From assembly GCA_963719225.1 (NCBI GenBank), contig CAVRAY010000001.1:1920001-1984000 (forward strand): a stretch of 64,000 nucleotides of DNA, in the 5' to 3' direction. The translations under genes were made by a program, and so were the position numbers. Source of the DNA: Thermoanaerobaculia bacterium. GTDB taxonomy: Bacteria > Acidobacteriota > Thermoanaerobaculia > UBA5066. Within the stretch, counting starts at the first letter, position 1. Each line of letters begins with the position of its first letter. The notes beneath the pieces are model-generated. The model made no database searches, had not been told where the DNA came from, and was given only the letters and a program-made list of their open reading frames with translations. Of the stretch, positions 1,645-63,245 are shown piece after piece.

Positions 1645-3396
1645 CTAGCGGATCACCGGCGTCGGCGCTTCGCCTTCGACCCACCGGTAGAGGCCGGGCG
1701 AGAGGTCCTTCGCCGAAGCCATCGTCGCGTCCGGCCAGTGGACGTCGACCGAGTCGGCCTTCGCCGCCTGGCCGAGGCCGATGACGACGGTTCGGTCGCT
1801 CGCCGAAAGATAGCCGTCGCCGCCCGAGATCTCGTCGACGCGCTTGCGAGATCCCACCGTCGAAACCACGCGGGCGCCGAGGGCTGCGCGGTTCTTCCTC
1901 TTCGTGGCGAGCTGGAGTCTCACGGCGCGCGCGGGGGTCTCCGTGACGTTCCGGAAGACGCGGGCGGGGCCGCCGTTCTCGGTGACGACGAGGTCGGCCC
2001 GGCCGTCGCCGTCGAAGTCGGCCACGGCGAGGCCTCGCCCCACGATCGGGACGAGGAAGCTCGCGCCGGCCTGCGACGAGACGTCGGCGAACCGCCCGGC
2101 GCCGAGCCCGCGGAATAGGAGCGTCGGCTGCCGGTACGTGACGGTCGGCTGCACGTCCTGGACGGAGGTCTCCACGTGACCGTTCACGCCCACGACGTCC
2201 AGGATTCCGTCGAGGTCGAAGTCGGCAAATGCGACGCCGAACGTGAGCGGAAGGAGCGACGTCCGTCCGATGCCGCTTTGGACGGACTCGTCCACGAAGA
2301 AATCGCCCTTCGGCCCGGCGCTCCAGACGGACCACATCTCGTTCGAGAAGTTGCCGATCACGAGCGAGGTCCCGCCCTCGTTCTTCGTGTCCCCGAAGGC
2401 CACGCCCATCGCCCCGCGCGCGCGGCCGTCCTCTCCCACGGCAACGCCCGTCTCGACGGCGGCGTCGCGGAAGATCGGGATGCCGTTCACGGTCTTCTCG
2501 TTCCGGCAGAGGTTGTTCGGAGACGTGTCGTTCGCGACGACCATGTCGATGCGGCCGTCGCCGTCGACGTCACGCACGGCCACGCCGAGCGCCTTGCCGA
2601 GAGGGTTCACGAGGCCCGCTTCCTTCGTGATGTCGCGGAAGCGGCCGCCGCCGAGGCCCTTGTAGAGGCGCGAAGGCGTTCCCGGATAACGCTCGGGCGT
2701 GCAATAGGACTTCGTCTTGCCGTCCAGCGAGCAGTACATGTCCGTCTTCGGCGTCCAGTTCACGTACTGGCCGACGAAGAGGTCGAGCGTGCCGTCCCCG
2801 TCGAAATCCGCGAACGCCGCGGACGTCCCCCAGCCCGACCCGACGAGACCGGAGCCCTTCGTCGCGTCGCGGAAGCGTCCCTTCCCGTCGTTCAGGAAGA
2901 GCCGGATGTCGTCGAGGCCCGTGATGACGACGTCGGGGAACCCGTCGTCGTTCACGTCGCCGACGGCGACCCCCATGCCGAAGAGGGAGACTCCCAGGCC
3001 GCTCTCCTTCGTCCTGTCCTCGAAGCGGATGGGGCCGCCGGGGCTCGTGACGTTGCGGTAGAAGGCGAGCGTGGCCCGGGCCGCCGTCCCGCGCGGGTCT
3101 CCCGCCCAGTAGCGGCCGTTGACGAAGAGGAGGTCGACGCGGCCGTCGCCGTCCGCGTCGAACGCGGCCACGCCCGATCCCATCGTCTCGGGCATCCACT
3201 TCTTGCCGGCGGCGCCGTTCACGTGCGTGAAGGCCACTCCGGAGGCTTTCGTCACGTCCTCGAATCGAATCGAGGAGACCGCGCGCGTCGGCTCGGGCGC
3301 CGGAGTGGGGGAGACGGGTTTCGCCTCGGGTTTGCGGCAGGCAGTAGCGGCGAACGCAAGGGCAAGAAAGAGAGGAAGATTTCTTAGAATGGTCAT
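1645..3396 (-). CDS. CRTAC1/ASPIC-UnbV family FG-GAP repeat lipoprotein
   Basis: Lipobox-like AATAC, PETMGSG motif, repeated DxDGDGxxDL FG-GAP units, C-terminal GGDGYLS..GLG ASPIC/UnbV domain. Start ATG 3396. Confidence 0.9.
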   Translation of the reverse strand: MTILRNLPLFLALAFAATACRKPEAKPVSPTPAPEPTRAVSSIRFEDVTKASGVAFTHVNGAAGKKWMPETMGSGVAAFDADGDGRVDLLFVNGRYWAGDPRGTAARATLAFYRNVTSPGGPIRFEDRTKESGLGVSLFGMGVAVGDVNDDGFPDVVITGLDDIRLFLNDGKGRFRDATKGSGLVGSGWGTSAAFADFDGDGTLDLFVGQYVNWTPKTDMYCSLDGKTKSYCTPERYPGTPSRLYKGLGGGRFRDITKEAGLVNPLGKALGVAVRDVDGDGRIDMVVANDTSPNNLCRNEKTVNGIPIFRDAAVETGVAVGEDGRARGAMGVAFGDTKNEGGTSLVIGNFSNEMWSVWSAGPKGDFFVDESVQSGIGRTSLLPLTFGVAFADFDLDGILDVVGVNGHVETSVQDVQPTVTYRQPTLLFRGLGAGRFADVSSQAGASFLVPIVGRGLAVADFDGDGRADLVVTENGGPARVFRNVTETPARAVRLQLATKRKNRAALGARVVSTVGSRKRVDEISGGDGYLSASDRTVVIGLGQAAKADSVDVHWPDATMASAKDLSPGLYRWVEGEAPTPVIR

Positions 3397-3454
3397 GGGG
3401 GCGAAAATGTTACTCCAGGGAGCGACGGCGCGGATCCATCGTAGAGTCCGTGGG

Positions 3455-6154
3455 ATGAAGCGAGCGGTTTCGACGCTTTCTTTCGCAGCTGTCCTTCTTT
3501 CGGTCTTCACGGCGTCCGTCTCGAGGGCTGAGTCCCCGCCGCCTCCGAAGCTTCGCCTGCCCGCGGGAGCCGCTCCACTGGGCTACGCCGCGGAGCTCTG
3601 GATCGACCCTTCCCAGGGGACGTTCAAGGGGAAGATAGAGATAGAAATCTCTTCGAAAGGCGAAGAGGGCACCGTCTGGTTGAACGCCAGGGATCTGGTC
3701 GTGGAAACGGCGTCCGCCCGCCGCGCCGAGGGGGGCGAGGCGAATCCCGCCGCTGCGGCTTTGGCAGGCAGGGACTTCGTCTCCCTCACCTTTCAAAGAA
3801 ATCTTTCTCCCGGCCGGTGGATCCTGAGCCTCGAGTACAAGGGCCGCGTCGACCTCAAGGACACCCACGGCCTCTTCCGGCAACGGGAGGGAGACGACTG
3901 GTATGTCTTCAGCCAGTTCGAAGCCATCTCGGCGAGACGGGCGTTCCCCTGCTTCGACGAGCCGGGATTCAAGGTCCCGTGGCAGCTCACGCTGCACGTC
4001 CCGAGGCACCACGTCGCCGTCTCGAACACGCCGGTCCTCTCCGAGGCCGACGAAGCGGGCGGCACGAAGAAGGTGGTGTTCGAGCGGACGAAGCCCCTCC
4101 CGAGCTACCTGATCGCTCTCGGAGTCGGACCGTTCGATGTCGTGTCCGCGGGCACGGCCGGCCGGAACAAGGTCCCGATCCGGATGATCGTTCCGAAGGG
4201 CCGCGGCGCCGAGGCGCGCTGGGCCGTCGCGTCCACGGGAACGATCCTCGATCTCCTTGAGACCTATTTCGACATTCCGTACCCTTACGAGAAGCTCGAT
4301 CACCTCGTGATTCCCCAGACCGTCGGATTCGGGGCGATGGAGAACCCGGGCCTCGTCACGTACGTCTCGACGTCCATCCTCGCGAAGAGTGCCGACGAGA
4401 CGATCCTCTTCCGGAGGCGATACGCGGGCGTCTGCGCCCACGAGACCGCGCACCAGTGGTTCGGCGACTTCGTGACGATGGCCTGGTGGGACGACGTGTG
4501 GCTGAACGAGTCTTTCGCGACGTGGATGGCGAACAAGATCATCGGGAAGTGGAAACCCGAGTGGGGCTCGCGCGCGGCACGTGTCTCGACGCGCTCCTAC
4601 GCCATGGACCTGGATTCCCTCGTTTCAGCCCGGCGCATCCGCCAGCCCATCGAATCCAACGACGACATCGAAAACGCGTTCGACGGCATCACGTACCAGA
4701 AGGGCGGCGCCGTTCTCGACATGTTCGAGTCGTGGGTCGGCGAAGAGACCTTCCGGAAAGGCGTTCACCAGTACCTGAAATCGCACGCGTTCGGCAACGC
4801 GACGGCGGCCGACTTCGTCGGAGCCATCGCCTCCGAGGCGAGGAAGCCGGAGCTGAACGCCGCTTTCTTCTCGTTCCTCGACCAGCCGGGGGTTCCGCTC
4901 GTGTCGGTCGAGCTGACCTGTACGGGAGGCGCGCCCCGCGTGCTCCTGTCGCAGAAGCGCTTTCTGCCCGCCGGCTCCTCGGGCTCGACGCGGGAGACCT
5001 GGCGCATTCCGGTCTGCGTGCGGACCGGCGAAGTCGGGGCGGCCCCCGTCTGCACTTTGCTCACGGAGGAAAAGGGGAGCCTCGCGCTCCCGGGGGCCTG
5101 CCCCGAGCGGGTCGTCGCGAACGCCGCTTCCGCCGGCTACTACCGGGTGCTGTACAAGGGAAGCGCGCTCGGAAAGGCGCTCGCCGATTCCGGGAGGCAC
5201 CTCTCGCCGGTCGAACGCATCGCCGTGCTGGTGGACGTGGCGGCTCTCGCGCGCACGGGCGAGGTGCCGATGGCGACGGCGCTCGCGCTCGTGCCCGCCT
5301 TCGCCGGCGATCCGGATCGACAGGTCGTGGAGGCGATGGCTCGAATCGCGGCGTCGCCGCGCGATCTCTTCGTCACGGACGAGCTGCGTCCGAACTACCG
5401 GCGCTTCGTGTCTGACGCGTTCGGCGCGCGGGCGCGGGCTCTCGGCCTGAAGTCGAAGCCGGGCGAGGACGACGACACGAAGCTCCTCCGGTCGGCCCTG
5501 GTCGGCCTCGTCGCGGATGAAGCGGACGATCCGGCGCTCGTCGCCGAGGCTTCGTCGCTCGCGAAGAAGTGGCTCACCGACCGTTCCGCGATCGAGCCGG
5601 AGATGCTGCCCACGGTGCTGACGGTGGCGGCCCGGCACGGCGACGCGGAGACGTTCACGGCGTTCCTGGCCGCGGCGAAGACGTCGCGGGACCGGCGCGA
5701 GCGCGGGCGCCTTCTCGCGGCTCTCGGCGCTTTCCGCGATCCGTCCGTCCAGAAGCTCGCTTTGAACGTCACACTTTCTCCCGATTTCGACGCGCGCGAG
5801 TCGCTCGTGGTGCTCCGCGAGGCGGCCGCCGACCGCGTGACGCGCGAGGGCGCCTGGGCGTTCCTGAAGGCGAACTTCGCCGCGCTCGCCGCGCGGCTCC
5901 CGAGCGAGTCTCCCGCCGGGTTCCCGCAGCTCACCGCCGGTTTCAGCGACGAGGCGCACCGGGCGGACGTCGCGGCTTTCTTCAAGGACAAGGCCCCGAA
6001 CTACACCGGCGGTCCGAGGCGCCTCGCGCAATCGCTCGAACAGATCCAGCTCAAGGCCGCCCTCCGCGCCGCGCAGCAGGAGAGTGTGACCGCCTTTCTC
6101 AAGAACTATCCGGCCAAGCCCATGATCGACGTCCGGCCCCAGACGGGCATCTAG
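3455..6154 (+). CDS. M1 family aminopeptidase with ERAP1-like C-terminal domain, secreted
   Basis: Signal peptide, SQFE..ARRAFPCFDEP, GAMEN, HETAHQWFG..WLNES, YQKG. Start ATG 3455. Confidence 0.93.
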   Translation: MKRAVSTLSFAAVLLSVFTASVSRAESPPPPKLRLPAGAAPLGYAAELWIDPSQGTFKGKIEIEISSKGEEGTVWLNARDLVVETASARRAEGGEANPAAAALAGRDFVSLTFQRNLSPGRWILSLEYKGRVDLKDTHGLFRQREGDDWYVFSQFEAISARRAFPCFDEPGFKVPWQLTLHVPRHHVAVSNTPVLSEADEAGGTKKVVFERTKPLPSYLIALGVGPFDVVSAGTAGRNKVPIRMIVPKGRGAEARWAVASTGTILDLLETYFDIPYPYEKLDHLVIPQTVGFGAMENPGLVTYVSTSILAKSADETILFRRRYAGVCAHETAHQWFGDFVTMAWWDDVWLNESFATWMANKIIGKWKPEWGSRAARVSTRSYAMDLDSLVSARRIRQPIESNDDIENAFDGITYQKGGAVLDMFESWVGEETFRKGVHQYLKSHAFGNATAADFVGAIASEARKPELNAAFFSFLDQPGVPLVSVELTCTGGAPRVLLSQKRFLPAGSSGSTRETWRIPVCVRTGEVGAAPVCTLLTEEKGSLALPGACPERVVANAASAGYYRVLYKGSALGKALADSGRHLSPVERIAVLVDVAALARTGEVPMATALALVPAFAGDPDRQVVEAMARIAASPRDLFVTDELRPNYRRFVSDAFGARARALGLKSKPGEDDDTKLLRSALVGLVADEADDPALVAEASSLAKKWLTDRSAIEPEMLPTVLTVAARHGDAETFTAFLAAAKTSRDRRERGRLLAALGAFRDPSVQKLALNVTLSPDFDARESLVVLREAAADRVTREGAWAFLKANFAALAARLPSESPAGFPQLTAGFSDEAHRADVAAFFKDKAPNYTGGPRRLAQSLEQIQLKAALRAAQQESVTAFLKNYPAKPMIDVRPQTGI

Positions 6155-14044: not shown

Positions 14045-14078
14045 GATACGGATTCTAAATCGCTCGGAAACGTACGCG

Positions 14079-14777
14079 TCAACGTGCTCCGAGCTCGCCC
14101 GCCAGCCACTCGGCGGCGTCGCGGTAGGCCTCGCGGGGGAGGCGCCCGTCGACGTCCGGGGCATAGAGCTTCTCGATCACTCCATCGGAGGAAATATTTG
14201 CTTCGGACCCGAGCAATGCCTCCAGCAGCACTCTTCGGGGTGCGCTGTCGAAGAATTTCCTAGAAGGGGAAGAGGGGGAGGGAAAGCCCGCGGGGTCGGG
14301 CGTTCTGCTTTGCAAAATCGCTACGGCGGCGGGAGCCGCGTCGGCCCCCATCCACTTTCTAAGAAAATCCCCCGTGGGTTCCACGAGAAGCCAGCCCGTT
14401 GGCGCGCCCTTGCTCTCTGCACGGGTCCGAAGCAAATCTTCCCTCGGCGGCTCTTTCGGCGCGTTCTCGAAAAGCAGAACGACGAACCCGCGCTCCGCGA
14501 GGGGCCCGAGGATCCGATCCTTCGGGCACGCCCTTGCGCCCGGCGCCGCGCAGACGACGACGATGGAAGGGCGGCCGGCAGCCGCGACGCGCTTTCGCTT
14601 GTCCGGATAGACGGAGCCGGGGAGCAGGGCGGCGTAGAGCTTCGGAACGTAGAGGCGCGCCCAGTCGCCGTTCGAAGAGATCTTCTCGGTCCGCTGCCAA
14701 AGGGACGACGCGCAGCCCGTCAGGCCGAAGGCCAGAAGCGCGACGAGGAAACAACGGGCGGCGGCAAAGTCTTTCAA
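14079..14777 (-). CDS. Hypothetical lipoprotein
   Basis: TTG 14777 overlaps the addA stop, lipobox LTGC follows a hydrophobic stretch. This is the 3' part of ORF 14079..16163. Confidence 0.55.
   Translation of the reverse strand: MKDFAAARCFLVALLAFGLTGCASSLWQRTEKISSNGDWARLYVPKLYAALLPGSVYPDKRKRVAAAGRPSIVVVCAAPGARACPKDRILGPLAERGFVVLLFENAPKEPPREDLLRTRAESKGAPTGWLLVEPTGDFLRKWMGADAAPAAVAILQSRTPDPAGFPSPSSPSRKFFDSAPRRVLLEALLGSEANISSDGVIEKLYAPDVDGRLPREAYRDAAEWLAGELGAR
14250..14370. repeat. Inverted pair of TTCTTAGAA motif inside the lipoprotein CDS
   Basis: AAGAATTTCCTAGAAGG (14257-14265) and CTTTCTAAGAAAATCC (14357-14365). Confidence 0.75.
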
Positions 14778-17700
14778 TCTTCTTCGAATGGTAAGGAGGC
14801 CTGGACGGGACGCCGGCCCTGCGCCTGCGACGCGCCCGCTTCGGGCTCCGCCGCTCTCTCTACCCCCTTCAAAGAATCTCTTTCTTTCTCCCCCCTCGAC
14901 GTATCTCGGCTTCGTCCTTCCTCCAGCCACTGCAGATGTCCGTTGTCCATGAAATAGAGCCCCGCCACGGCGCGCTGTTTCGTGAGCGCCTCCCACGCCT
15001 TGCGGTAATGCTCGATCTGCGGCGCGTAGTGAGCGACGAGGGCGTCGAGGTTGTCGCCGACGACGTCGGATTTCCAGTCCACGATGTGCCAGATCCCGTC
15101 CTCTTCGAAGACGAGGTCGATCGCGCCCTTGAGGAGCGTCTCCTCCGGCCCGCCCGAGACTCCGAGCTCGGCCGATGGAACCATCATGGCGAAAGGCGCC
15201 TCGACGAACCTGCGTTTCGCCGCGAGGGCCCGCGCCCAGAGCGGCGACGTCGTGACCGAGTCGGCCACGCGGAGCACCTCGTCGAGAAACGCCGATCCGA
15301 GCTCCTCCTCGCGCAGGAGGTTCTGCGCGACGGGGCGCAGCGAGAGGCCGGGCGTTCGCATCGCCGCCTCGAGGAGCTGGTGCAGAACGCGTCCCCAGGC
15401 GGTGCCGCGGGCGTTCTCGGCTGCGGCCGGCGCGCGCGGGCCTTCCTTCTTCGCGAGCGCGGTGACGGGCGCCACGACGAACGAAGGAGTCGCGGCGCTC
15501 AGACGCCCCTCGGCGATCCTCTTTCGGGCCCCGGCGAGCTCCGCCGCGAGCGGCGGAGTCTTCGCGGGAGCGAAAGGCCGAAGCTCGGCGATCGCGGGCG
15601 GAAGTTCCTTCAACCCGGACCTCAGAGGCGCCCATGCTCCGCTTTCCGGCTTGTCCTCCCGGAGGCTCACGACCAGCGTGTCGCGGGCCCGTGTCGCAGC
15701 GACGTAGAGGAGTCGCGTCCTCTCGGCCTCCTCGAAGGCGATCTCGTCGTTCTTGCGGCTCTCCCAGTCGGGAGGAGTCGCTGTCGCGGCCCACTGATTC
15801 GGCCGCATCCAGTATCCCGCCGTGAACCAGCCGCGCGATCCCGCGGCGCCGCGCGCGACGTGGCGCCTGGGCTCGGGCTTCCTCCAGACACTGAGCTCGG
15901 CGAGGACCACGATGGGGGCCTCGAGGCCCTTGGCCCGGTGGAGGTTCATGAGTCGGACGGCGTCCGCGTCGACGGGCTCGACGCTCATCTCCTCGAGATC
16001 GAGGGAGGGCGCGTCCTCGGCGAGCCGCTGTACGACGTCCCGGAACGAATGCCCTTCGCTCGTCAGCCGCCGCGCGAGCGCCAGTACTTTCAGGAGGTTG
16101 CCGCTGGCGGTTCGTCCTTCGGGCCCTGCGGCGAGCCGTGCGACGAGGCCGAGCCTGTCGCACGTGAGGGCGAGAGCGGCGCCGGCCGGATGCACGTTCA
16201 CGTCCTTCCGCGCTCTTGCGAGGAGGCCGAGGCCGCGGGAGATCCTCGGGTCCGTTCCCGGCGGAGGGTCGACGAGATAGGAGAAGCGCCCGCCGGCCCG
16301 ATGGAATTCGTAGAGCGCTTCGTCGTCGACGCCCGAGAGAGGGCCCGAGAGGAACGCGACGATCGAGACGTCGTCATCCGGATCCTGGATCGCCGCGAGG
16401 AACGGCCGCAGCACCGCGAGCCCTTTCGAGATCGGGAGCGCCCGGCTTCCCGACACGTCCACCGGTATTCCGAGCGCCTCGAACGCCCGTGCATAGACGT
16501 CGAGGTGTTCACGCGTCCGCGTCAGGACCAGGAAGTCACCGAAACGCGCGGCGCGTTCGGGCCCGTCGGATGAGACCGGCCATTTGTGGTCGACTGCTCC
16601 CCGGACGAAGCTCGCGACGTCGGAGGCATTGGCACATGCGAGCTCTTCGGCGCTGGCGCCGGCGCGCGTGAGGAGGCGAAACGCTCCGGACCTCTCCGAC
16701 CGGTCGTCTCGCACGGGTTCGAGGGGAGAGAAGGCAGCCTGGCGGTCGTCGGCGACCGCCGGAAACCGGCTTCGAAACCAGGCATTCGCCGGATCCGTGA
16801 GAGCTCGGACGGCCCGGAAGTTCGCGTCGAGCCGGACGATGCGTCCGCCGGACGCGACGAGCGTGCGGCGAAAATTCATGTATGCCGCGATGTCCGCGCG
16901 CCGGAAGCGATAGATCGACTGCTTGGGATCGCCCACGACGAAGAGCGATCCGGCCCTGGGCTTCAGACGCGACACGTCCTTCTCGTCCAGGTCGTCGCTC
17001 GTCAGGTAAAGGAGGATCTCTGCCTGCAGCGGATCGGTGTCCTGGAACTCGTCGACGAGGAGGTGCGTGAAGCGCGTCGTGAACGCCCGCCGAACCGCGG
17101 GGAAGTCCCGCAGGAGGTCGCGTGTCGCGAGAAGCAGGTCCGCATACGTGAACGGCCCGTTACCGGCGCGCCGCGACGCGAGATGCGCCAGCCCCGGCCG
17201 GAGCACGGCATAGATCCGCTCGTGCAGCGCGAGCTGCCACTCCGCGAGCGCAGGCTTGATGACGTCCTGGCGAAGAGCCTCGAACTCCTTGCCGAGGCTT
17301 CTCGCCAGTTCCTTGTCGGGCCATTTGTACAGGGTCGCACCGCCGGCCGGACGAAGAATTCTTAGAAGGCGGGCGAAGCCAGGCGGCGTCGCGTATTCGG
17401 GAAGCTCTCGCAGATTTCGCGCTTCGAGCAGCCGCGCCTGCAGGTCGTCGCGACCCGCCGCGCCGGGCGCTTCCGGGACCAGCGGAATTACCCTTCTAAG
17501 AAAATCTTCAATCTTCCCTCGTATTTCCTCGAAGTCGGGCAGCGCGAGCGGATCGGCGACGACGGGGACGACGTCGGGGTATTCGGCGTAGAGCTCGAAG
17601 CTGTCCTCCAGCTCTCTCATCGTGACGCCGAGCGCGAAGAGGGAAGCGACGGGGCTCCGGGCGTCCGCAAGCGTGCCGACATACTCGCGGAACGTTCGAG

Positions 17701-21162: not shown

Positions 21163-21305
21163 GCCGCGAGCTTAAGCGAAGCGAGGAAGGGGGCACGGGG
21201 GAAACGCGAACGTGTTTCCCCCGCTGGCTCGCAGATGCCGGGCCCGCCTGTCCCAGTTCGGACCGCGAAGCGGTCCGCGGGCCCGGCGTGTGATCATCGC
21301 GCCGC

Positions 21306-22838
21306 ATGGAAGGCGTCTCGCTCGGGCTGCCGACGCTGATCGCGATCGCCGTGTACCTCGCCGGCATCAACGTCCTCGGCGCGGTGCTCGGGCGGGGCCA
21401 GAAGGACGCGAAGGACTATTTCCTGGGCTCTCACGCGATGCCCTGGTGGGCCGTGATGGCCTCGATCGTCGCGACGGAGACCTCGGCGCTCACGTTCCTT
21501 TCCGTCCCCGGAGACGCCTACCGCACGGGCTTCACGTTTCTGCAGCTCGCGTTCGGCTATCTCCTCGGGCGCATCGCGGTCTCGTCGCTGCTCCTGCCCG
21601 GCTACTTTCAGGGCGAGATCACGACCGCCTACGCGCTCCTCGAACGGCGGTTCGGCGTCGGCGCGCGTCGCTTCACGTCGCTCATCTTCATGGTCACGCG
21701 CGTCATGGCCGCGAGCGTCCGCCTCGCGGTTCCCGCGATCCCGATCGCGCTCATCCTCGGCATTCCCGTGTGGATCGCGATCCTGTTGCTCGCGGCCGCG
21801 ACGGCTCTCTACACGTTCCTGGGGGGCCTCAAGGCCGTCATCTGGATCGATCTGATCCAGGTCGTCGTGTATCTCTCGGGCGCGATCATGGCGTTATGGG
21901 TGCTTCTCAATTCGTTCGGCGGGGGATTCGGAGGATTTCAAGAGATTCTTAGAAGGTGCAATGCGCTGGGGAACCCGGTTCGGCTCATTAACCTTTCTAA
22001 GAACTTTGCAGAACCCTACACTTTGTGGGCAGGTGTCATCGGAGGAGCCGTGCTTGCGATGGCCTCGCACGGCGCCGACCAGCTCATCGTCCAGCGGCTC
22101 CTCGCGTGTCGCGGCCTGCGCGACGCGCAGAAGGCCCTCGTCGGGAGCGGCGTCCTCGTGATCCTGCAGTTCTGCCTTTTCCTCGCCGTCGGAGTCGGAC
22201 TCTTCGCGTTCTACGGAGGGCGCGCCGTGGGCCCGGGCGGGTTCGCGACGAGCGACGAGATCTTCCCGGCGTTCATCGTCGGCCATCTCCCGCCCTTCAT
22301 TTCCGCGTATCTCATCGCCGGCATCTTCTCGGCGGCCATGTGCTCGGAGTCGTCCGCGCTCAACTCGCTCGCCTCGGCGCTCTCGCTCGACATCGTGGCG
22401 CCGCTGCTCGGGAGGAAGTACGTGGAAGGGAAGAGGGGCCTCGTCCTCGGGAAGATTCTGACGCTGTTCTGGACGGTCGTTCTCGCCGGGCTGGCCGTCG
22501 GCTTCTCGCGCCTGCCGCAGAACGTCCCGGCCGTACAGGTCGCGCTGGGCCTCGCGAGCGTGACGGCGGGCGGCCTCCTCGGCGCATTCCTGCTCGCGCT
22601 TTGGGCGAAGAAGGCGACTCAGACGGACGCGATGATCGGCATCGCCACGTCGGCCGTCTTCATGTTCGTCCTGTGGCTCGGATCGAAGGGCTGGGTGCCG
22701 TTCACGCTCGGGAAAATGATCGCGTGGCCGTGGTACTCGCTCCTCGGCTCGACGATCGCGTTCGGGACGGGGTGGCTCCTGTCACAGCGCCATACGACGC
22801 GAGGCCCGCGGTTCGGTGTGCCGCCGTCCCCGAGCTGA
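21306..22838 (+). CDS. Sodium:solute symporter (SSS) family transporter
   Basis: DYFLG, SIVATETSALTF, YALLERRFG, YT.LGGLKAVIW.D, DQLIVQRLLA. Confidence 0.92.
   Translation: MEGVSLGLPTLIAIAVYLAGINVLGAVLGRGQKDAKDYFLGSHAMPWWAVMASIVATETSALTFLSVPGDAYRTGFTFLQLAFGYLLGRIAVSSLLLPGYFQGEITTAYALLERRFGVGARRFTSLIFMVTRVMAASVRLAVPAIPIALILGIPVWIAILLLAAATALYTFLGGLKAVIWIDLIQVVVYLSGAIMALWVLLNSFGGGFGGFQEILRRCNALGNPVRLINLSKNFAEPYTLWAGVIGGAVLAMASHGADQLIVQRLLACRGLRDAQKALVGSGVLVILQFCLFLAVGVGLFAFYGGRAVGPGGFATSDEIFPAFIVGHLPPFISAYLIAGIFSAAMCSESSALNSLASALSLDIVAPLLGRKYVEGKRGLVLGKILTLFWTVVLAGLAVGFSRLPQNVPAVQVALGLASVTAGGLLGAFLLALWAKKATQTDAMIGIATSAVFMFVLWLGSKGWVPFTLGKMIAWPWYSLLGSTIAFGTGWLLSQRHTTRGPRFGVPPSPS
21941..22006. 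repeat. Inverted pair of TTCTTAGAA motif inside the SSS symporter CDS
   Basis: AGAGATTCTTAGAAGGT (21946-21954) and ACCTTTCTAAGAACTT (21995-22003). Confidence 0.8.
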
Positions 22839-23069
22839 TCAGCTCCGACGCCGGACGAGTACCGCGATGGCCAGTCCGAGTCCGGCTGCAAGCCCGGCGC
22901 CGACGAGCGTGACCGCCGTACGGTGGCGCCGCAGCTGCAGCCGCCAGTCCAGGGCCTCGTGGCGCCGGCGGTCGATTTCCGCGAGGTACGCCCCGAGATC
23001 GGAGCGCGCCTTCTCGATGTCCTGAACGACCTCGGAGGCCTTCCGCTCGCGAGAGGTGTCGGCTCTCAT
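22839..23069 (-). CDS. Small membrane-anchored DUF3618-like protein
   Basis: DIEKARSDL helix and C-terminal TM segment. ATG 23069 overlaps the upstream stop, the usual partner of holin-like (YqjE) domains. Confidence 0.6.
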   Translation of the reverse strand: MRADTSRERKASEVVQDIEKARSDLGAYLAEIDRRRHEALDWRLQLRRHRTAVTLVGAGLAAGLGLAIAVLVRRRS

Positions 23070-24545: not shown

Positions 24546-24980
24546 TCACATGCCCAACATCACCCTTGCCACGCGCGACATCATCTCCGCGGTCCAGGGC
24601 GGCTCCCAGACGAGCTCGACCTTCGCATCGGTGATGCCGGGGATGGCCTTGATCTTCGTCTCGACCTCGCCCGGCAGGGAGCCTGCGACCGGACACGCGG
24701 GCGCCGTCAGCGTCATCTTCACGTTCGCGACGCCTTCGGGTGACACGCGCACGTCGTAGATCAGCCCCAGCTCCCAGATGTTCACGGGGATCTCGGGGTC
24801 GAAGCACTTCTTCAAGGCCTCATCGATGACCTTCTGCTCGAGAGGACTGGGAGAAGAGGAAGACGAAGATTGCTCGGATGACACGGGGTCGGACGCCGCA
24901 GACTGTACCGCCGATGCCGCGTACGCTTCGCCAGTGCTCTTGCCCTTATTACCTTCTAAGAAATCTTTCTCTTCTCCCAT
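24546..24980 (-). CDS. sufT: SUF Fe-S assembly protein SufT (DUF59)
   Basis: DPEIPVNIWELGLIY, MTLTAPACP, WEPPW. Last gene of the suf operon, with a low-complexity N-terminal extension. Confidence 0.88.
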   Translation of the reverse strand: MGEEKDFLEGNKGKSTGEAYAASAVQSAASDPVSSEQSSSSSSPSPLEQKVIDEALKKCFDPEIPVNIWELGLIYDVRVSPEGVANVKMTLTAPACPVAGSLPGEVETKIKAIPGITDAKVELVWEPPWTAEMMSRVARVMLGM

Positions 24981-25007
24981 TTCTCTATCTATTCTTTCTT
25001 TCTTTAA

Positions 25008-25460: not shown

Positions 25461-26719
25461 CAGCCGAACACCTCGCGCACCTTCTCGATTCCCGCCGCGA
25501 GGGCGTCGACTTCCGCGCGCGTGTTGTAGAGGCCGAACGAGGCCCGTGCCGTGGCGGGAAGGCCGAAGCGGTCCATGACGGGCTGCGCGCAGTGGTGGCC
25601 CGTCCGGATGGCGATGCCCTCGCGGTCGAGGATCGTGCCGATGTCGTGCGGGTGCACGTTCTCGAGGACGAACGAGATCACGGCGGCCTTCTCCTTCGCC
25701 CGGCCCACGATCGTGACGCCGGGAATGCCGGAGAGCTTCTTCGTGCCGTGGACGAGGAGTTCGTGCTCGTGCTCGGCCACCGCGGCGAGCCCCGTGCCTT
25801 TCAGCCAGTCGGCGGCGACGCCGAAAGCGATCCCGCCGGCGATGTTCGCGGTGCCCGCCTCGAACTTCCAGGGCAGGACGTTGTACGTGGTCTTCTCGAA
25901 CGTGACGGACGAGATCATGTCGCCCCCGCCCTGGTAGGGGGGCAGCTTCTCGAGCCATTCCTCGGTGCCGTAGAGCGCGCCAATACCCGTCGGCCCGTAC
26001 ATCTTGTGGCCCGAGATCGCGTAGAAGTCGCAGCCGAGCTCCACGACGTCGATCGGGAGGTGCGGCGCGGCCTGAGCGCCGTCCACGAGGACGGGAACGC
26101 CCCGCGCGTGCGCGAGCGCGATGAACGTCTTCACGGGGTTCACGGTGCCGAGCGCGTTCGAGACGTGCGATACGGCGGCGAGCTTCGTCCGCGGCGTCAG
26201 GCGCCTTTCGAACTCGTCGACCGGCACTTCGCCCCCGTCGGTGATCGGCACGACGACGAGCTTCGCGCCCGTCCTCTCGCAGGCGAGCTGCCACGGCACG
26301 ATGTTCGAGTGATGCTCGAGGCCGGTGATGAGGACTTCGTCGCCCGCCTTCAGGAAATCCCGGGCGAATCCGGCCGCGACGAGGTTGATCGCCTCCGTCG
26401 TGCCGCGCGTGAAGACGATTTCCTTCGGTGAGGCGGCCCCGAGAAAGCGCGCGACCTTTTCGCGGCCGCCTTCGTAGGCCTCGGTGGCCTTCTCGGAAAG
26501 CCAGTGCGTGCCCCGGTGGATGTTCGCGTTCTCTTCCTCGTAGTAGCGCCGAATCGCGTCGATCACGACCCTAGGCTTCTGCGTCGTGTTCGCGTTGTCG
26601 AGGTAGACGAGGGGCTTGCCGTATACCGAGCGCGAAAGGATCGGGAACTCGGCGCGGACGCGCTCCACGTCGTACGCGCGGGCGCGCGGCTCGGAAGCGG
26701 TCTTCGTGACGGCGCTCAT
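25460..26719 (-). CDS. sufS: Cysteine desulfurase SufS
   Basis: VYLDNA, EHHSN, SGHKMYGPTG, RTGHHCAQP. Confidence 0.95.
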   Translation of the reverse strand: MSAVTKTASEPRARAYDVERVRAEFPILSRSVYGKPLVYLDNANTTQKPRVVIDAIRRYYEEENANIHRGTHWLSEKATEAYEGGREKVARFLGAASPKEIVFTRGTTEAINLVAAGFARDFLKAGDEVLITGLEHHSNIVPWQLACERTGAKLVVVPITDGGEVPVDEFERRLTPRTKLAAVSHVSNALGTVNPVKTFIALAHARGVPVLVDGAQAAPHLPIDVVELGCDFYAISGHKMYGPTGIGALYGTEEWLEKLPPYQGGGDMISSVTFEKTTYNVLPWKFEAGTANIAGGIAFGVAADWLKGTGLAAVAEHEHELLVHGTKKLSGIPGVTIVGRAKEKAAVISFVLENVHPHDIGTILDREGIAIRTGHHCAQPVMDRFGLPATARASFGLYNTRAEVDALAAGIEKVREVFG

Positions 26720-28098
26720 CGGCTCTCCGGAGCCGCGAGGTTCGCGGGCAGCCACGCGCGGAGGTGCCCCTCGAGGAAGGCCCTGACGTCGCGGGAGGCC
26801 ACCTTCTCGATCATCTCGCTGCCGAACGCGTACGTGAGGAGGGCGCGCGCCGCCTCGGGCGAGAGGCCGCGCGAGCGGAGGTAGAAGACGGCGTCCGCGT
26901 CGAGGCGTCCCGTCGTGGAGCCGTGCGAGCAGCGGACGTCGTTGTTGTGGATCTCGAGCTGCGGCTTGCTGTCGACGAGGGCGTTGTCCGAGAGGATGAG
27001 GTTGCGGTTCGTCTGGCGCGCGTCGGTTCGCGCGGCCCCGGGACGCACGACGATCTTGCCGTCGAAGACCCCGCGGCCCGTCCCATCGAGGACGCCCTTG
27101 TAGAGCTCGACGCTGTTGGCGCGAGGCGCCACGTGGTCGATGAGCGTGTGACAGTCGACGTGCTGGCCCGAGTCCGCGCAGAAGAGGCCGTTGAGCTCGG
27201 TTCCCGCCCCTTCGCCCGCGAGGTCCATCGCGAGCTCGTTGCGGACGAGCCTGCCGCCGAACGAAAAGACGTGGGACGCGGACGTCGCGCCCGCGGCGTG
27301 GGCGACCGAGAGATTCCCGACGTGAAACGACTCCGGACCCTCGAGCTGGAGCTTGACGTGATTGATGCGCGCGTCCCGCGCGAGGGAAACGTCCGTCCGG
27401 GTGTTCATGAAGGACGGGCCGCCGGCACCGAGATAGGTCTCGATCACCGTGGCCGAGGAATTCTCTTCGAAGGTGAAGAGATTCCGCGTGTGCACCATCC
27501 GGGGCGCTTCCGAGGAGCCAGGGGGCGTCGCGACGTGAAGGATGAAGAGGGGCTCTTCGAGGCGGACGCCGGCGGCGACGCGAAGAACGACACCTTCGTC
27601 CAGAAAAGCATCACCGAGAGCGGCAAAACTGCCCCGCGCGGGACCCTCAGCCGCGGCCGACGCGACGAGGGCCTTCTCGACGACCTCCGGCGATTCCCGG
27701 AGGACCGTCCCCATCCATTCGAAGAAGACCCCCGGGGGAAGAGCTCCGGCGTTTCGACGCAGGTGTCGCCCGTTCACGAACGCGAGCCTCGGCTCCGAAG
27801 CCGAAAATCCGATCGTTCCGAGCCGCGCCTCCATCTCGAGGGCCGCGGTCCGCTCGGCGAGGGAGACCTCGTCGGGGGGGAGGCCGAATCCCGTTCGGGT
27901 CAGCGGCGCGAGGTTCGTGAATCGCCATTCCTCGTCGTACGTCGAGGGAAACCCGAGCCGCTCGAATCCCGCGAGACCGTTCCGGCGCAGCTTCTGCAGC
28001 CAGGGCGGGCCCGGACGGGAGGCGGCAAAGTCCGAGGCCTGCGCCGCGAGCGCCGCGACTCCCTCGTGGAGCACCAGGGGCCGGGCCGCGCGCGTCAT
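26716..28098 (-). CDS. sufD: Fe-S assembly protein SufD
   Basis: EEWRFT, PQLEI..DVRCSHG, FYLRSRG. Confidence 0.92.
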
Positions 28099-30866: not shown

Positions 30867-30879
30867 GAGAGAGAATGGA

Positions 30880-31005
30880 GATTGAAGAGAAGATAAGGGA
30901 TTCTCTTAGAAAGGGTTAGTGAGAAGTCGTCTCAATGCCGGGGACGGCACCGTGAGCCGCGAACTAGCTTCAAACCCTCTTACCTTCTAAGAAATCCGAA
31001 TCTCT
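30880..31005. repeat. Inverted pair of TTCTTAGAA motif
   Basis: Purine tract-ATTCTCTTAGAAAGG (30903-30911) and TACCTTCTAAGAAATC (30985-30993). Confidence 0.8.
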
Positions 31006-31826
31006 CGTTCTCCCATTCCGACCGCGAAGGCGCCGTAGCCGACGACCCGGTGCGGGTCGCCGGCCGTGTCCGCCGAAGTCCTGAGGTCGAGGAGCTCCAC
31101 CGGGAGGTCTTTCCGGCGCGCGAGCTCGACGAGGCCACGGAGCGCGAAGATCCCGCACGCGTCCCCCTCGACGAGCGCGCTCGCCTTCCGCGCGACGACG
31201 TTCTCGGCCGTTTGTCTGTCGAGCCGGCGGGCGGTCTCGACGCCGTGGTAGTGGCTGAGGTCCGTGCTCACGAGGACGAGGGTGCCCGCCTCGCCCAGGA
31301 AAGCGTCGATGAGATCGGCCGTCTCCGGAGCCGGCTGCTCCGAGACGGCGACAGGCAGAAAGGTGAATCCTTCGCCGAAAACCCGCTGCAGGAACGGGAG
31401 CTGAACCTCGAGCGAATGCTCGGGGGCGTGCGGCCGGTCGTCGACCGTCGCTCCATGGGCCACGGCCCGTTCGCGAAGCGCGGTATCGACCAGCACCTCA
31501 CCGAGGGGCGTCGCCCATGCGCCCGCTGCGGGAACCGCCGCGCCGCGGACGGCAACGTAGTGGACCGGCCCGAAAGCCACGACGCGCGAGATCGAGGCGG
31601 CCATGCTGCTCAACCAGGCGTACGCCGTCGCCGCGACGGGACCCGAGTAGACGTAGCCCGCGTGCGGGACGACGAGGGCCAGTGGCGGCGGCGCACTTGC
31701 CGGAATGGCCGCTCCCGCGAGCAAATCGTCGACCATCCGCTCCAGCTCGCCGGGCCGTGCCGGATAGAACGTCCCCGCGACGGCGGGCGCCCGAACCCGG
31801 GACGGCGCCGCGGCGCCGAGCCTCAT
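30987..31826 (-). CDS. amrB: AmmeMemoRadiSam system protein B (MEMO1 family)
   Basis: PAVAGTFYP, PHAGYVYSG, EHSLEVQLPFLQ, STDLSHY, VVGYG. Confidence 0.92.
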   Translation of the reverse strand: MRLGAAAPSRVRAPAVAGTFYPARPGELERMVDDLLAGAAIPASAPPPLALVVPHAGYVYSGPVAATAYAWLSSMAASISRVVAFGPVHYVAVRGAAVPAAGAWATPLGEVLVDTALRERAVAHGATVDDRPHAPEHSLEVQLPFLQRVFGEGFTFLPVAVSEQPAPETADLIDAFLGEAGTLVLVSTDLSHYHGVETARRLDRQTAENVVARKASALVEGDACGIFALRGLVELARRKDLPVELLDLRTSADTAGDPHRVVGYGAFAVGMGEREIRIS

Positions 31827-32938: not shown

Positions 32939-33077
32939 CCGCCGCGCGCCGGAGGCGAGGGGCACCGTGAACCGAAGACGAGGATTTCTTCGAAGGCTCG
33001 TGAGCGCTTCTCGATGCCGGCCTCGACGCACCGCGCCGGTAGCCGTCGCCTTCGGTACATGTTGTCGATCGCCACGC

Positions 33078-40606: not shown

Positions 40607-41521
40607 TCAACGGGGCTCGGGGCAGAACTCCTCGAAGCCGCGAGCGTGATCCCGGCGTGCGAGCCGCGAAGGGTCCGGGTCGCGCGGCAGGACGCCGAGC
40701 GCGATGAGCTGCGGCCGAAACTCGTAGCGCAGGCGCACGAGGGCGGCGGGTTCGCTCTCGAGCTCGAGGTCGACCTGCGTCACGCCGAACTGGGTTCTCC
40801 GACCCATGCCCGTCGCGGCGTACTCGTCCGAGAGCTTCGGGGAGGGAACGGGAGAAGTCGAAAGAGATTTCTGCGAGTGGTCCCGGGCCGTGCCGGACGG
40901 CTCGTTCTGCGCGATCCGGCCTTCGGCTTCGCCACCGTCCGATGAGGACCTTTTCTTCGAAAGGTCGCGATCGTCGCCGCGGCCGTCCGCCGCCGGCGCC
41001 GCGGCGGACGAGTCCGTATTCTCATTCGAAGGAATCCTCTCTCTTCTGCGGTCTTCTTCCTTCCACCACCTCTGGACGCGGTAGGGGAGTCTCTCGCGGA
41101 AGAACACCGCCTCGATGACGCCCAGGTCCTGGGTCTTCCCGAGCGCCGCGCCGTAAGAGCCGCGTTCACCCGTGAAGACGAACCTGCGGGAGGCCGCGTT
41201 CGAGACCTGCCAGCCCGGGATGATCACGGTTTCGTATGGCGCGAGGACCCATTTGCGCGCGTCCCGGGCCGTCGTGTGCCGGGAGTCGAGCGTGTTGAGG
41301 CCGTCCACCGAGAGCGCCACGGCGACGCGCGTTCCCGTCGGGTTCGAAAGGCGCAGGGCGTAATCGTGGCCGCGAAGCGCCTCGACGTAGACGGTGCCCC
41401 GCGAGGCGAACTCGGGGCGTTCGCGGCCGTCCACGAGGACGTCGAGGCCGAAGCCGAACGAAGAGGAAGCGTTCGCGGCCCCGGCGGTGAGGAGGAGTGC
41501 CGCGAGAATCTGGTGGCGCAT
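40607..41521 (-). CDS. Conserved hypothetical secreted protein
   Basis: Signal peptide, LSVDGLN, IPGWQ..RRFVFT, LGVIEAVFFRE, low-complexity linker. SD GGAG upstream. Confidence 0.7.
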   Translation of the reverse strand: MRHQILAALLLTAGAANASSSFGFGLDVLVDGRERPEFASRGTVYVEALRGHDYALRLSNPTGTRVAVALSVDGLNTLDSRHTTARDARKWVLAPYETVIIPGWQVSNAASRRFVFTGERGSYGAALGKTQDLGVIEAVFFRERLPYRVQRWWKEEDRRRERIPSNENTDSSAAAPAADGRGDDRDLSKKRSSSDGGEAEGRIAQNEPSGTARDHSQKSLSTSPVPSPKLSDEYAATGMGRRTQFGVTQVDLELESEPAALVRLRYEFRPQLIALGVLPRDPDPSRLARRDHARGFEEFCPEPR

Positions 41522-43180: not shown

Positions 43181-43304
43181 CAGAGAAAGAGGAAGACGAA
43201 AGAAAGATTTCTTAGAAGGTAAGAAGCGCGGCGCAGCAGGCGCGGTGCGCCGAGGTCGGCATGCGAGGCGCCTCACGCGCTTTCTAAGAAAATTCTCTTT
43301 CTTT
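43181..43304. repeat. Inverted pair of TTCTTAGAA motif, intergenic
   Basis: GAAAGAAAGATTTCTTAGAAGGTAAG (core 43209-43217) and CTTTCTAAGAAAATTCTCTTTCTTT (core 43282-43290). Confidence 0.85.
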
Positions 43305-43317
43305 GGCCCCGGTCTTT

Positions 43318-59223: not shown

Positions 59224-59224
59224 A

Positions 59225-62200: not shown

Positions 62201-62371
62201 GCGGCCGGCACTTCCGTCCCGGTCTCCACCGCGATCAGCTACCGTACGGGCCAGACCCGGGCGAACAACGCCATCGCGGCTCCCTCCACGTCGGGCGCTC
62301 TCGCCGTCTACGCCAACCAGCCGAGCGGAACGGTGCAGGTCATCCTCGACGTGAACGGGTACTTCAAGTAG
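59225..62371 (+). CDS. Secreted GloVer-type tandem repeat protein with Ig-like and C-terminal PCR..DTR domains
   Basis: 14 repeats of G.L....DG..YGT..GG..GTVF, then PKD/Ig-like segments and FFPVTPCRLADTR..VILDVNGYF. Confidence 0.88.
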   Translation: MPFKVFRLKYPVRSLALGVCALVALCAAAPARAQTYEIVTAFTVPAAQPVAGLVQGTDGFFYGTTRGGGASSGGTVFRIDSAGNLTTLHTFSYEDGNDPEAGLIQASDGSFYGTTYGGGAHGFGTVFKIDSAGDLTTLHSFAGDDQSTSGNDGGHPVAPLVQAPDGNFYGTTSSGGLSFNDLGTVFKMTPAGTVTIIHSFTGGPSDGVYPVAGLVYSSADAKLYGTTQVGGGGSGMVFRLSLDGSNFADLHNFVITDGAAPSAALVAANGKFYGTTKSGGSAGFGTIFSIDVPGTFAVLKHLGAADGHAPTAPLFLAGDGKLYGTTTAGGTNDLGTTFKVDFAGTLTTLHPIAAGEGSTPLGGVVQGSDGNFYGTARDGGAFGGGTVFKMTSAGALTKIYDFGGSSTGYEPESGVLQANDGNLYGTTFWGGPGNFGTIYKLTFAGTRTIVHNFSGADGSAPWAKLIQLSDGKLYGTASRDGGSHWGTAFSVTLAGTFSLLHSFNGTDGLGPRDAALVLRPADGMLYGTTEGGGTGLGNAFKMSTAGAVTSIHAFNLTDGAYPSDGLLLGTDGNLYGTTASGGAAVAQGNVIKITPAGAVTVLHEFNHTQGADDDGMWPVGGLIRATDGKFYGTTRAGGANTAGNVFRIDAAGTYASIHSFSGSDGSEPYGNLLQASDGRLYGTTLTGGAHGHGTVFSIDTAGTDFSSLHSLTLEEGAGPRGGLIQASDGKVYGVTGGGGPGKAGVVFRLTLAGCTPPAPPTAGNNGPKCAGQTLQLTASTIGGATYAWTGPNSFTSALQNPSIAAATTAASGTYSVRATVAGCTSAAATTTATVNPLPSPAITAPSPLCPNVTGQVASVPAAGPGATYAWSIVNGTITAGSGTRTITFSAGASGSVTLNVTVTSASGCASSGSLPIPISTSCGSASRFFPVTPCRLADTRNPTGPLGGPALAAGAQRSFPLTGTCGVPAGTRALSLNVTITSPTSAGDLKLFAAGTSVPVSTAISYRTGQTRANNAIAAPSTSGALAVYANQPSGTVQVILDVNGYFK

Positions 62372-63245
62372 CGGTCTGTCGTGCCCGGCCGAACTTCGCG
62401 TAGATCGCGTTCCCGAGCGGCACCGCCACGAGCGCGAGTGCGAAGCCGCCGATGACGTCCGCGACGTAGTGATAACGGCAGTAGACCGTGGCGAGGATGA
62501 GGCCGACGGCGAACGGCAGGAACGCCCAGAACGTCTTTTTCGAGCGGCGATATGCCTCGAGGAGGATCGCGACGAGGACCATCGTGTGGCCTGACGGGAA
62601 GCAGTCCCGCTTGTTCTTCTCGAGGACGTCGAGGGTGTGATCGATCGCCTGTGAGATCGCGCCCCGCGGGAGCGGTCCGGCGTGCACGAGCGTGTAACGG
62701 GGCCCGGTCGCGGGCACGAAGAAGTAGCACGCGTAGCTGACGTAGAAGACGAAAACGATGACGAACGCGTAGCGCGGAAAGTCGCGCGTTTCCGCCGGGC
62801 GAGCCCGGTCGTCGAGGAGCACGAGCGTCCCCAGAATGATCGGATGGAAATAATAAAGGGCGTAGAAGATCGTCAGGACGTCCGAGAGGAACGGCGTCGC
62901 GATTGTCTCGAGCACCACCGTGGGGTCCGTTCCGAACATCGCGCGGTCGAGGGCGATGAGCGTGGCGTCGTAGTCGACGGGGTGCACGGCGCGGATGAGC
63001 GGGCCGAGCCCGTCGAAGATCGCGACGACGCAGCCAATGATGTAGTAGTCGAAGAGAATCCGAAGATTCTTAGAAGGTGAAGAGACGCGCGCGCGCATGA
63101 AGGCGATGCCCGCGGGTACCGCCGCGACCACGATCATCCTCAGAAGAACTCCTCGGTCCTCGAGCGCATCGATGCGCACGAGGCCGGCGAGAAAGAGAAG
63201 GGATGCGAAACCTGTCGTCAAAACGTCGACCGGCTTCCAACGCAT
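62364..63245 (-). CDS. PAP2-superfamily membrane phosphotransferase, AUR1/IPC-synthase-like
   Basis: Multi-TM, PATGPRY, CFPSGHT, YCRYHYVADV. Confidence 0.75.
   Translation of the reverse strand: MRWKPVDVLTTGFASLLFLAGLVRIDALEDRGVLLRMIVVAAVPAGIAFMRARVSSPSKNLRILFDYYIIGCVVAIFDGLGPLIRAVHPVDYDATLIALDRAMFGTDPTVVLETIATPFLSDVLTIFYALYYFHPIILGTLVLLDDRARPAETRDFPRYAFVIVFVFYVSYACYFFVPATGPRYTLVHAGPLPRGAISQAIDHTLDVLEKNKRDCFPSGHTMVLVAILLEAYRRSKKTFWAFLPFAVGLILATVYCRYHYVADVIGGFALALVAVPLGNAIYAKFGRARQTAT

Follow-up and report, generated by a model that had tools for sequence, protein, structure and literature searches.

We demonstrate that the AT-rich nine-nucleotide word TTCTTAGAA, found repeatedly in the genome of a Thermoanaerobaculia bacterium, is the core of an oriented, purine-strand-biased arm of approximately 45 bp, and that the repeated unit is a facing pair of such arms rather than a lone site. 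The motif was noticed in a 64,000-nucleotide stretch of DNA (the window, C1:1920001-1984000) of a genome, G000, that comprises 4.75 Mb at 68% GC in two contigs, C1 and C2. It is restricted to one Thermoanaerobaculia genus and its sister genus, and comparison with outgroup proteins shows that arms inside genes arose in place, by substitutions and small low-complexity insertions. Our preferred interpretation, to which we assign a probability of roughly 0.35, is that the arm pairs are landing sites for a lineage-specific, putative DNA-reading factor; equally tentatively, the whole chromosome could be subject to a DNA-reading system not described before, with a 'facing-pair' code of its own, whose factor would over time have forced hundreds of arms into spacers and essential reading frames, through substitution and slippage and not by transposition.

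An earlier note on this DNA had listed 11 exact cores in the window, and all were recovered at the positions and on the strands given there, where 0.05 would be expected and no more than 2 occurred in any of 100 dinucleotide shuffles. Allowing up to one mismatch to TTCTTAGAA yielded 34 matches on the two strands together, at 23 distinct places in the window (2.86 expected), and these include eight of the ten near-copies in the note (3792, 14257, 14780, 14868, 30903, 31877, 32986 and 40953); the remaining two, at 3649 and 41025, carry two mismatches each and are both scored as arms by the weight matrix. The whole genome contains 273 exact cores, of which 259 lie on C1 and 14 on C2, compared to 0-2 in a third-order Markov copy of the genome, and as relatives carry the motif too, the suspected chromosome-wide signal does extend beyond the window and beyond G000. 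A codon-aware null was obtained by ten synonymous-codon shuffles within each called gene, preserving every protein as well as the codon usage of the gene. Called genes hold 156 exact cores as opposed to 0-7 in the shuffles, 209 copies of TTCTTCGAA and its reverse complement as opposed to 54-76, and 663 matrix sites as opposed to 168-184. Chance and composition are thus excluded by the dinucleotide shuffles, the Markov copy and the synonymous-codon shuffles alike. A reversed genome was unsuitable as a null, since the reversed arm itself resembles an arm.

When all copies were aligned, the order of the arm was found to be a C-poor purine tract (approximately -25 to -3), (A/T)T, TTCTT-N-GAA, GG and T/G-R-A-A-R-R-G-G to approximately +19, the purine-rich strand being identical on both sides of the core. 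The flank conservation seen in the window, with a GA-rich 5′ tract, (A/T)T, and a 3′ GG followed by T/G-R-A-A, holds genome-wide, while the TTC-N3-GAA pattern that had been taken for a dyad is better read asymmetrically: the bases of TTCTT are each kept in 85-98% of copies and any base is tolerated at the sixth position (A 43%, C 38%, T 11%, G 7%). Core variants with C, T or G at this position (TTCTTCGAA, 188; TTCTTTGAA, 66; TTCTTGGAA, 44) encode peptides that include ISSKG and ISLKG, and because an A in these frames would create an in-frame TAG, the standard genetic code is respected. GAA triplets show weak peaks at -12, -6, +6 and +12, a 6-nt rhythm. A weight matrix built in two rounds scored 994 sites at 14 or above (77 in the Markov control) and 916 at 16 or above (40 in the control); the latter are referred to below as strong arms, and we count approximately 900 arms overall. 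The 16S tail and spacer (L303:3040-3065, G000:C1 ~905530) read CACCTCCTTTCTAAGGG and resemble the right arm TTCACC-TTCTAAGAA, so that the left arm looks like an extended Shine-Dalgarno sequence; this likeness may be a coincidence. An altered anti-Shine-Dalgarno sequence was ruled out, as the 16S 3′ end is canonical (CACCTCCTTTCT).

The facing arrangement is pronounced. Within 500 bp, 765 of the 916 strong arms have a facing partner, whereas 85 have a back-to-back partner, which is approximately the chance level; a same-direction neighbour is also present for 358. Of 342 adjacent '+-' neighbours, 317 are less than 400 bp apart, compared to 21 of 342 '-+' neighbours. No excess of facing pairs over chance was found among adjacent sites genome-wide at 0.4-3 kb, so that no gene-sized element has arms as its flanks. 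We defined 354 facing pairs and measured spacing from core to core. There is a floor at approximately 68 bp, with 330 pairs at or above this distance and 24 closer, and a mode at 73-79 bp; 60 pairs lie at 68-79 bp, and the tail reaches approximately 300 bp. Helical phasing of the spacing was absent (Rayleigh power below 1 at periods of 10-11 bp), and a rigid DNA loop was rejected on this basis. A spike at 93 bp (17 pairs) comes mostly from a single family of paralogous genes, judged by eye to be kinase-like. These paralogues, clustered at G000:C1 ~2295000-2320000 and present as scattered copies, carry two facing pairs per gene, fixed in position and spaced 93 and 113-136 bp, and their arm consensus reads EDFLEGEER. 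Along the genome, elements are clustered and not evenly spaced. The two arms of a pair are independent, each matching the common consensus, and partner arms are no more alike than arms from different pairs at every flank position; such independence favours a trans-acting reader over self-pairing.

Genes were called by codon statistics (4,075 genes, 90% of the genome), and arms occur both between and inside them, in all three frames. Pairs lie within called genes in 213 of the 354 cases (280 expected from random segments) and are fully intergenic in 72, as compared to 18 expected, a 4-fold enrichment; a gene start is crossed by a further 33, where 20 would be expected, and a gene end by 29, where 17 would be. 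Under a stricter definition, at least a third of the pairs (120/354) are firmly intragenic: coding signal flanks the element on either side in one common frame, and no stop codon interrupts it. Per kb, arms are approximately 2-fold less dense in divergent spacers than in tandem or convergent ones. Orientation is unbiased with respect to genes (289 same, 285 antisense) and to replication-fork direction (446 vs 457 arms), and the view that the signal is tied neither to promoters nor to one gene class was borne out. In positions 13000-32500 of the window there was no excess of sigma-70 promoter-like sites, nor of terminator-like sites (14 vs 11.7 expected). In proteins, the left arm is translated as an E/K/R-rich stretch followed by DFLRR, FLE or ISSKG-type motifs, and the right arm as LSKK, FEE or LLR followed by S-rich stretches; the hosts include the isoleucyl-, leucyl- and alanyl-tRNA synthetases (IleRS, LeuRS and AlaRS) and an acyl-CoA-synthetase-like protein. 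The motif thereby adds low-complexity peptides to tRNA synthetases and transporters, and it is strong enough to override an extreme codon bias, given that the codons of the core are rare in this genome (TTA 0.1% and CTA 0.4% of Leu codons, AGA 2.1% of Arg codons).

The occurrence of the motif is lineage-specific: it is genus-wide, and sparser in the sister genus. The 11-mer TTCTTAGAAGG was present at 37-267 copies in every one of the 26 genomes sampled from the window's genus (g1 in our labelling) and in 8 of 8 genomes of the sister genus (g17) at 1-31 copies each, whereas other genera of the family and order had 0-1 copy; the reversed-word control gave 0-6. The relatives are metagenome-assembled genomes of uneven quality, the order-level rows include an unpublished genome (G024), and these counts come from kin and are not independent. 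The matrix scored 12 arms per 100 kb in 400 kb of the sister genus; facing neighbours numbered 16 there and back-to-back ones 2. A dialect of the motif in other genera was not found: a genome of the related genus g9 had no matrix sites in 200 kb, and an f2 genome, which has a different repeat of its own, had 7 in 200 kb (3.5 per 100 kb, noise level). Within one order-level relative, the segment G027:C1:2000001-2200000 (L314-L323) is dominated by a different repeat, CCTGACACC, at 29-30 copies with approximately 1 expected, alongside TGAAACCTGAAA. In a 14-mer scan of viral contigs, the 120 stretches listed, of approximately 760 estimated, showed single scattered matches only. In practice, the motif can serve as a sharp marker by which this genus is binned and tracked.

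On the chromosome scale, dnaA is located at G000:C2:326280-326765 and the cumulative-skew minimum also lies on the 0.87-Mb C2, while the GC-skew maximum is at approximately 2.0 Mb on C1. Hence, C1 and C2 are probably two pieces of one chromosome, with the window near the terminus. Sites are found everywhere, and the terminus-proximal 2.4 Mb is approximately 2.7-fold enriched overall (2.6-2.9): there are 23.2 genic arms per 100 kb as compared to 9.0 in the rest, 100.9 intergenic arms as compared to 34.6, and 202 exact cores as compared to 71. As the limits of this zone were chosen after the profile had been seen, the ratio is descriptive. The first 400 kb of C1 (G000:C1:1-400000) contain 191 T9/A9 runs and many A/T-rich words such as ACAAAAACA, which is extreme at 68% GC and could reflect an odd repeat region or an assembly artefact.

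That arms were written in place is best illustrated by individual genes. In a sodium:solute-symporter-like gene (the pair at 21946/21995), the motif-bearing segment is present at equal length without the motif in four outgroup genera (rows that include L014, from the unpublished genome G019); the outgroups read GGFAG-ALAANAAAGQPAHLFHFELVFARPYTFW where G000 reads GGFGGFQEILRRCNALGNPVRLINLSKNFAEPYTLW, ALAAN where it reads ILRRC, and FDFHLDFS where it reads INLSKNFA. Across this pair, GC content at third codon positions drops from approximately 0.9 to approximately 0.55. The left core is exact in 9 of 12 genus orthologues and one base off in the other 3, whereas only 2 of the 12 have an exact right core and several species keep the ancestral FDFS, indicating that the second arm was built later, beside the first. 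In the long minus-strand gene carrying the cores at 17359 and 17494, both are exact in at least nine orthologous loci where the surrounding synonymous sites vary, and in homologues of 31-35% identity a segment of equal length lacks the motif. In IleRS, FF(D/E) residues were in place before the left core formed on them, and the right core lies on F(L/V). Additions of K/E/R-rich and S-rich residues make the arms stronger in g17 than in g9 and stronger again in g1; a second pair in IleRS arose without length change. In the linker carrying the pair at 40953/41025, six species have conserved cores around an interior of variable sequence and length (alignment A1).

Interiors are unique: no two elements share one, and only 50 had any non-self match, these being the kinase-like paralogues, a 9-copy insertion sequence (IS) and a few short matches. 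Their orientation is constant in all orthologues compared. When three relatives were aligned to the window, cores were moderately retained and flanks fast-evolving. Core identity exceeded that of the aligned DNA overall in G017 (0.93 vs 0.85) and in G013 (0.84 vs 0.78). Per relative, 4-11 of the 27 window arms failed to align, and some elements have been gained or lost.

The elements of the window are collected in the table below, in which the arms are named by their extent and the cores by their first position.

Table. Arms and facing pairs in the window; spacing is measured from core to core.
Element	Coordinates	Strand	Cores	Spacing (bp)	Setting and remarks
Lone arm	3356..3409	+	3381-3389, exact		Matrix score 35; no adjacent facing partner scoring >=11; intergenic, upstream of called gene 3455..6154(+)
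Facing pair	3624..3825	.	3649(+) CTCTTCGAA; 3792(-) TTCTTTGAA	143	
Facing pair	14232..14390	.	14257(+) TTCCTAGAA; 14357(-) exact	100	
Facing pair	14755..14901	.	14780(+) TTCTTCGAA; 14868(-) TTCTTTGAA	88	
Facing pair	17334..17527	.	17359(+) exact; 17494(-) exact	135	In frame within long minus-strand gene; protein reading EDFLRR ... RLLRIL
Facing pair	21921..22028	.	21946(+) exact; 21995(-) exact	49	In frame within sodium:solute-symporter-like gene 21306..22838(+)
Lone arm	24934..24987	-	24954-24962, exact		Top score of the window (41); intergenic; long GA-rich tract
Facing pair	27438..27751	.	27463(+) CTCTTCGAA; 27718(-) TTCTTCGAA	255	In frame within gene 26716..28098(-)
Facing pair	30878..31018	.	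30903(+) CTCTTAGAA; 30985(-) exact	82	Intergenic
Lone arm	31852..31905	+	31877 TTCTTCGAA		
Lone arm	32961..33014	+	32986 TTCTTCGAA		Intergenic
Facing pair	40928..41058	.	40953(+) TTCTTCGAA; 41025(-) TCCTTCGAA	72	Fast-evolving linker of gene 40607..41521(-); extra same-direction arm ~70 nt upstream
Facing pair	43184..43315	.	43209(+) exact; 43282(-) exact	73	Intergenic, between convergent genes
Lone arm	63042..63095	+	63067-63075, exact		Antisense within gene 62364..63245(-)

The TAG of the core at 30985-30993 is the genuine stop codon of the called gene 30987..31826(-). Elsewhere, the TAG of the core, or the TAA or TGA in GGTAAG and GGTGA, ends many open reading frames (ORFs), including spurious ones (3385-3387, 17363-17365, 21950-21952). 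The arms are therefore a trap for annotation, generating spurious ORF ends as well as low-complexity inserts in proteins.

A trans-acting, direction-sensitive reader would best explain why the arms are independent of each other and share a fixed consensus, and why a direction rule and an unphased spacing floor apply. We propose that a putative reader, probably a protein or protein complex, recognises the arms one by one and binds each in a fixed direction, with contacts that may comprise TTCTT-N-GAAGG and the polypurine/polypyrimidine flank, and that two readers, facing each other over a distance of at least 60 bp, would act jointly on the DNA between them. The floor at approximately 68 bp could then represent steric exclusion between two inward footprints of approximately 30 bp, and the lack of helical phasing would point to a flexible or tracking coupling and not to a rigid loop. 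New arms might be fixed by directional pressure on point mutations and slippage, the pressure being either weak selection for the function of the reader or a reader-linked drive, while purifying selection on genes would set where arms survive: in intergenic DNA, linkers, loops and the terminus-proximal half. For the output of such a reader, our leading guess is nucleoid bridging or organisation.

Several observations weigh against this proposal. No candidate reader protein was identified, and a purine bias on one strand over approximately 45 bp is more usual for single-strand (RNA or single-stranded DNA) reading than for a duplex-binding protein. Judged from the genic sites that the codon shuffles retain, approximately a quarter of the genic matrix matches could be coding-driven, and both the gene calls and the weight matrix rest on crude scripts of our own, which also supplied the pair definition. 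Arm flanks evolve faster than average in the three relatives (identity 0.69-0.76), and in G003 the core identity of 0.81, compared to 0.84 overall, equals the neutral expectation, with 11 of 20 aligned cores keeping at least 8 of 9 bases. The intergenic pair at 43209/43282, present in G000 and G011, is wholly absent in G003, where the convergent genes are approximately 10 nt apart; this all-or-none difference looks like an insertion or deletion and not like gradual writing, and no clear target-site duplication was seen in this single filled/empty comparison. The elements are also clustered, and a host architecture would not need a third of them inside genes at a cost. Together, the clustered, tolerance-shaped distribution and the cost to genes make an origin by drive or as a by-product a serious rival to host function.

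That rival holds that the element is selfish, or a by-product, without host function and with a distribution reflecting tolerance only, which we consider rather doubtful. It could take the form of a very old, now immobile family resembling MITEs (miniature inverted-repeat transposable elements) or REPINs (doublets of repetitive extragenic palindromic sequences, REPs) with decayed interiors, or of arms spreading by short-patch conversion or biased repair into already similar sequences. Facing arms with a length floor and a mode near 75 bp do resemble terminal inverted repeats, and the intergenic excess of pairs, the terminus-proximal enrichment of genic and intergenic arms alike, a 7-fold difference in copy number among species, the existence of same-direction arm duplications and the costly placement in essential genes all speak for such an origin, as do the fast flanks, the neutral retention in G003 and the one intergenic presence/absence case. 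The interiors, however, are not common to any two elements, and in three genes the interior is a native protein segment whose arms arose with little or no change in length; core retention is above overall identity in two of the three comparisons, and the cores persist across six species in the hypervariable linker. We know of no conversion machinery or template. There are neither common interiors nor young near-identical copies, as would be found in a MITE family. The motif is not the terminus of any IS in G000, where the sole multi-copy IS found has unrelated ends, and whole-unit transposition was rejected by this together with the unique interiors. That IS, with nine near-identical copies of 1,339 bp (G000:C1:766246-767584 and eight others, on C1 and C2), has ends reading TAGCAGGCTGCTGAA... 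and one 388-amino-acid transposase-like ORF, and by eye it looks IS5-like. Mobilisation in the manner of REPINs by a REP-associated tyrosine transposase (RAYT) was likewise rejected: G000 yielded no member of the Y1 transposase family PF01797, and in relatives the Y1 genes have a different repeat, GGGTCAGGTCT, on their flanks at 7 of 7 loci examined. These loci (L324-L329 and L331, in G043, G064, G071, G018 and G039) carry inverted GGGTCAGGTCT-type repeats approximately 930-980 nt apart, and a motif search at the one locus searched, L324, gave no match. PF01797 is present in 17 of 17 g9 and 7 of 8 g17 genomes and in 4 of 26 of the window's genus, indicating that the motif-richest genus has mostly lost its RAYT-like system. 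In Pseudomonas fluorescens, REPs are described as palindromic cores replicated as units by a cognate RAYT, REPIN doublets have spacing peaks at 71 and 110 bp, and REPs are extragenic, with 14 of 1,067 16-mers overlapping genes (PMC3116915). Our motif shares with REPINs the inverted doublets, hundreds of copies, a similar modal spacing, less conserved spacers, vertical inheritance and lineage specificity; it differs in having at least a third of its pairs in frame within genes, arms that do not form hairpins and interiors of native, unique DNA. Facing arms could also be the sites of a recombinase that flips the intervening DNA. Such invertons are most improbable here. The arms do form inverted sites around segments of 60-300 bp, and a minimum site distance is typical of recombinase synapsis; yet in-silico inversion keeps the frame open in 38% of 209 intragenic pairs as compared to 58% of random segments of the same length, on which ground intragenic invertons were rejected. 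A single interior orientation was seen in all orthologues compared, and facing and back-to-back arms both count as inverted repeats, whereas the facing ones alone are enriched.

Reading on the RNA level would account for the strand bias. According to this explanation, which we find unlikely, the 5′ purine-rich and 3′ pyrimidine-rich arms pair through UUCUUAGAAGG/CCUUCUAAGAA in any transcript, and the hairpin would serve mRNA processing, stability or termination, for instance by presenting a C/U-rich, G-poor Rho entry site after the loop. Unphased spacing is what a flexible single strand would give, the one-strand purine bias suits single-strand reading, and arms are rarer in the divergent, promoter-bearing spacers. 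Whole elements also fold as long hairpins (z = -2.3 and -1.4 for two window elements), and the cores pair by at least 6 bp in the minimum-energy fold of 143 of 229 elements. Partner arms, however, do not covary: flank pairability (Watson-Crick plus G-U) is 0.48 for real and 0.47 for shuffled partners, and the slight surplus of sense over antisense G-U pairs (718 vs 644) is reproduced by shuffled partners. Stability per nt is not above that of random genome segments (-0.371 vs -0.412 kcal/mol), and an extended hairpin was rejected on these two grounds. Neither a minimum loop of 60 nt nor a fixed consensus is required of a hairpin, a third of the pairs lie inside translated regions, terminator-like sites are not in excess and a search of Rfam gave no match. 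A further explanation, already raised in the earlier note, is a DNA uptake signal akin to the DNA uptake sequence (DUS) or uptake signal sequence (USS), accumulating through preferential uptake and recombination of the fragments that carry it; this we hold to be quite unlikely. Part of the analogy stands. The motif is a lineage-specific word in hundreds of copies or more, on both strands equally and without fork-direction bias, in coding and non-coding DNA; it is genus-specific and weaker in the sister genus, its sites are permissive, and it has been written in place into coding sequence, with amino acids changed. By analogy, the oriented flanks and the weaker presence or dialects in related lineages may also be likened to DUS and USS, and flanks less conserved than average, like those of our arms, are reported for these (PMC2397512). 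ComEC, DprA, ComEA-like and secretin homologues are present in the genome, but competence families also match in 6-11 of 14 control genomes, so that their presence says little. What does not fit is the near-obligatory pairing with its floor, the ori-to-ter density gradient, the long purine-tract flanks and the low density: there is approximately one arm per 5 kb, 4-10 times fewer than uptake sequences. A single DUS suffices for uptake, DUS pairs are at most 21 nt apart and form terminator hairpins, and there is one DUS per 1.1-1.5 kb (PMC2397512); in our motif the two facing cores of a unit lie 68 bp or more from each other, and density rises towards the terminus.

Other known systems offer partial parallels to the proposed paired sites. 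The comparison with matS, parS and SlmA sites made in the earlier note fits the density gradient and fails on the approximately 900 oriented, asymmetric arms over the whole chromosome; matS, read by MatP, is a symmetric palindrome for a dimer in tens of copies. HIP1, the highly iterated palindrome GCGATCGC of cyanobacteria, is a true palindrome that matches genome composition; it is over-represented, sits in coding DNA through the choice of codons and persists from species to species, and its function is not known. Our motif is similarly a short near-palindromic word, hugely over-represented in coding DNA, and differs from HIP1 in its oriented 45-bp arms, its facing-pair rule and its opposition to genome composition. 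Rickettsia palindromic elements are whole inserted units of conserved sequence that lie in frame in genes. In both cases a translated repeat inside otherwise conserved proteins adds peptide segments, whereas in our motif nothing but the arms is new, the interior being sequence of the host itself. Facing pairs at least 68 bp apart constitute a geometric rule shown by none of the known classes. Judged from the listings, none of the papers listed for the 9-mer, for Thermoanaerobaculia repeats or for Acidobacteria miniature inverted repeats describes the element, and other work may exist; among the matches listed, the 9-mer appears in eukaryotic, viral or primer contexts.

DUS/USS, Chi, REP and HIP1 are examples of iterated genome-wide words, each of which has pointed to a dedicated molecular machine. 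If our proposal of paired sites for a DNA-reading factor is true, the motif would represent a new kind of bacterial chromatin or architecture signal, or else a new, non-transposing form of genomic drive. Should a reader protein exist, it would constitute a new sequence-specific system in an abundant, uncultured soil lineage; should none exist, the motif would show that spread through a bacterial genome, in place, is possible for a sequence that does not transpose.

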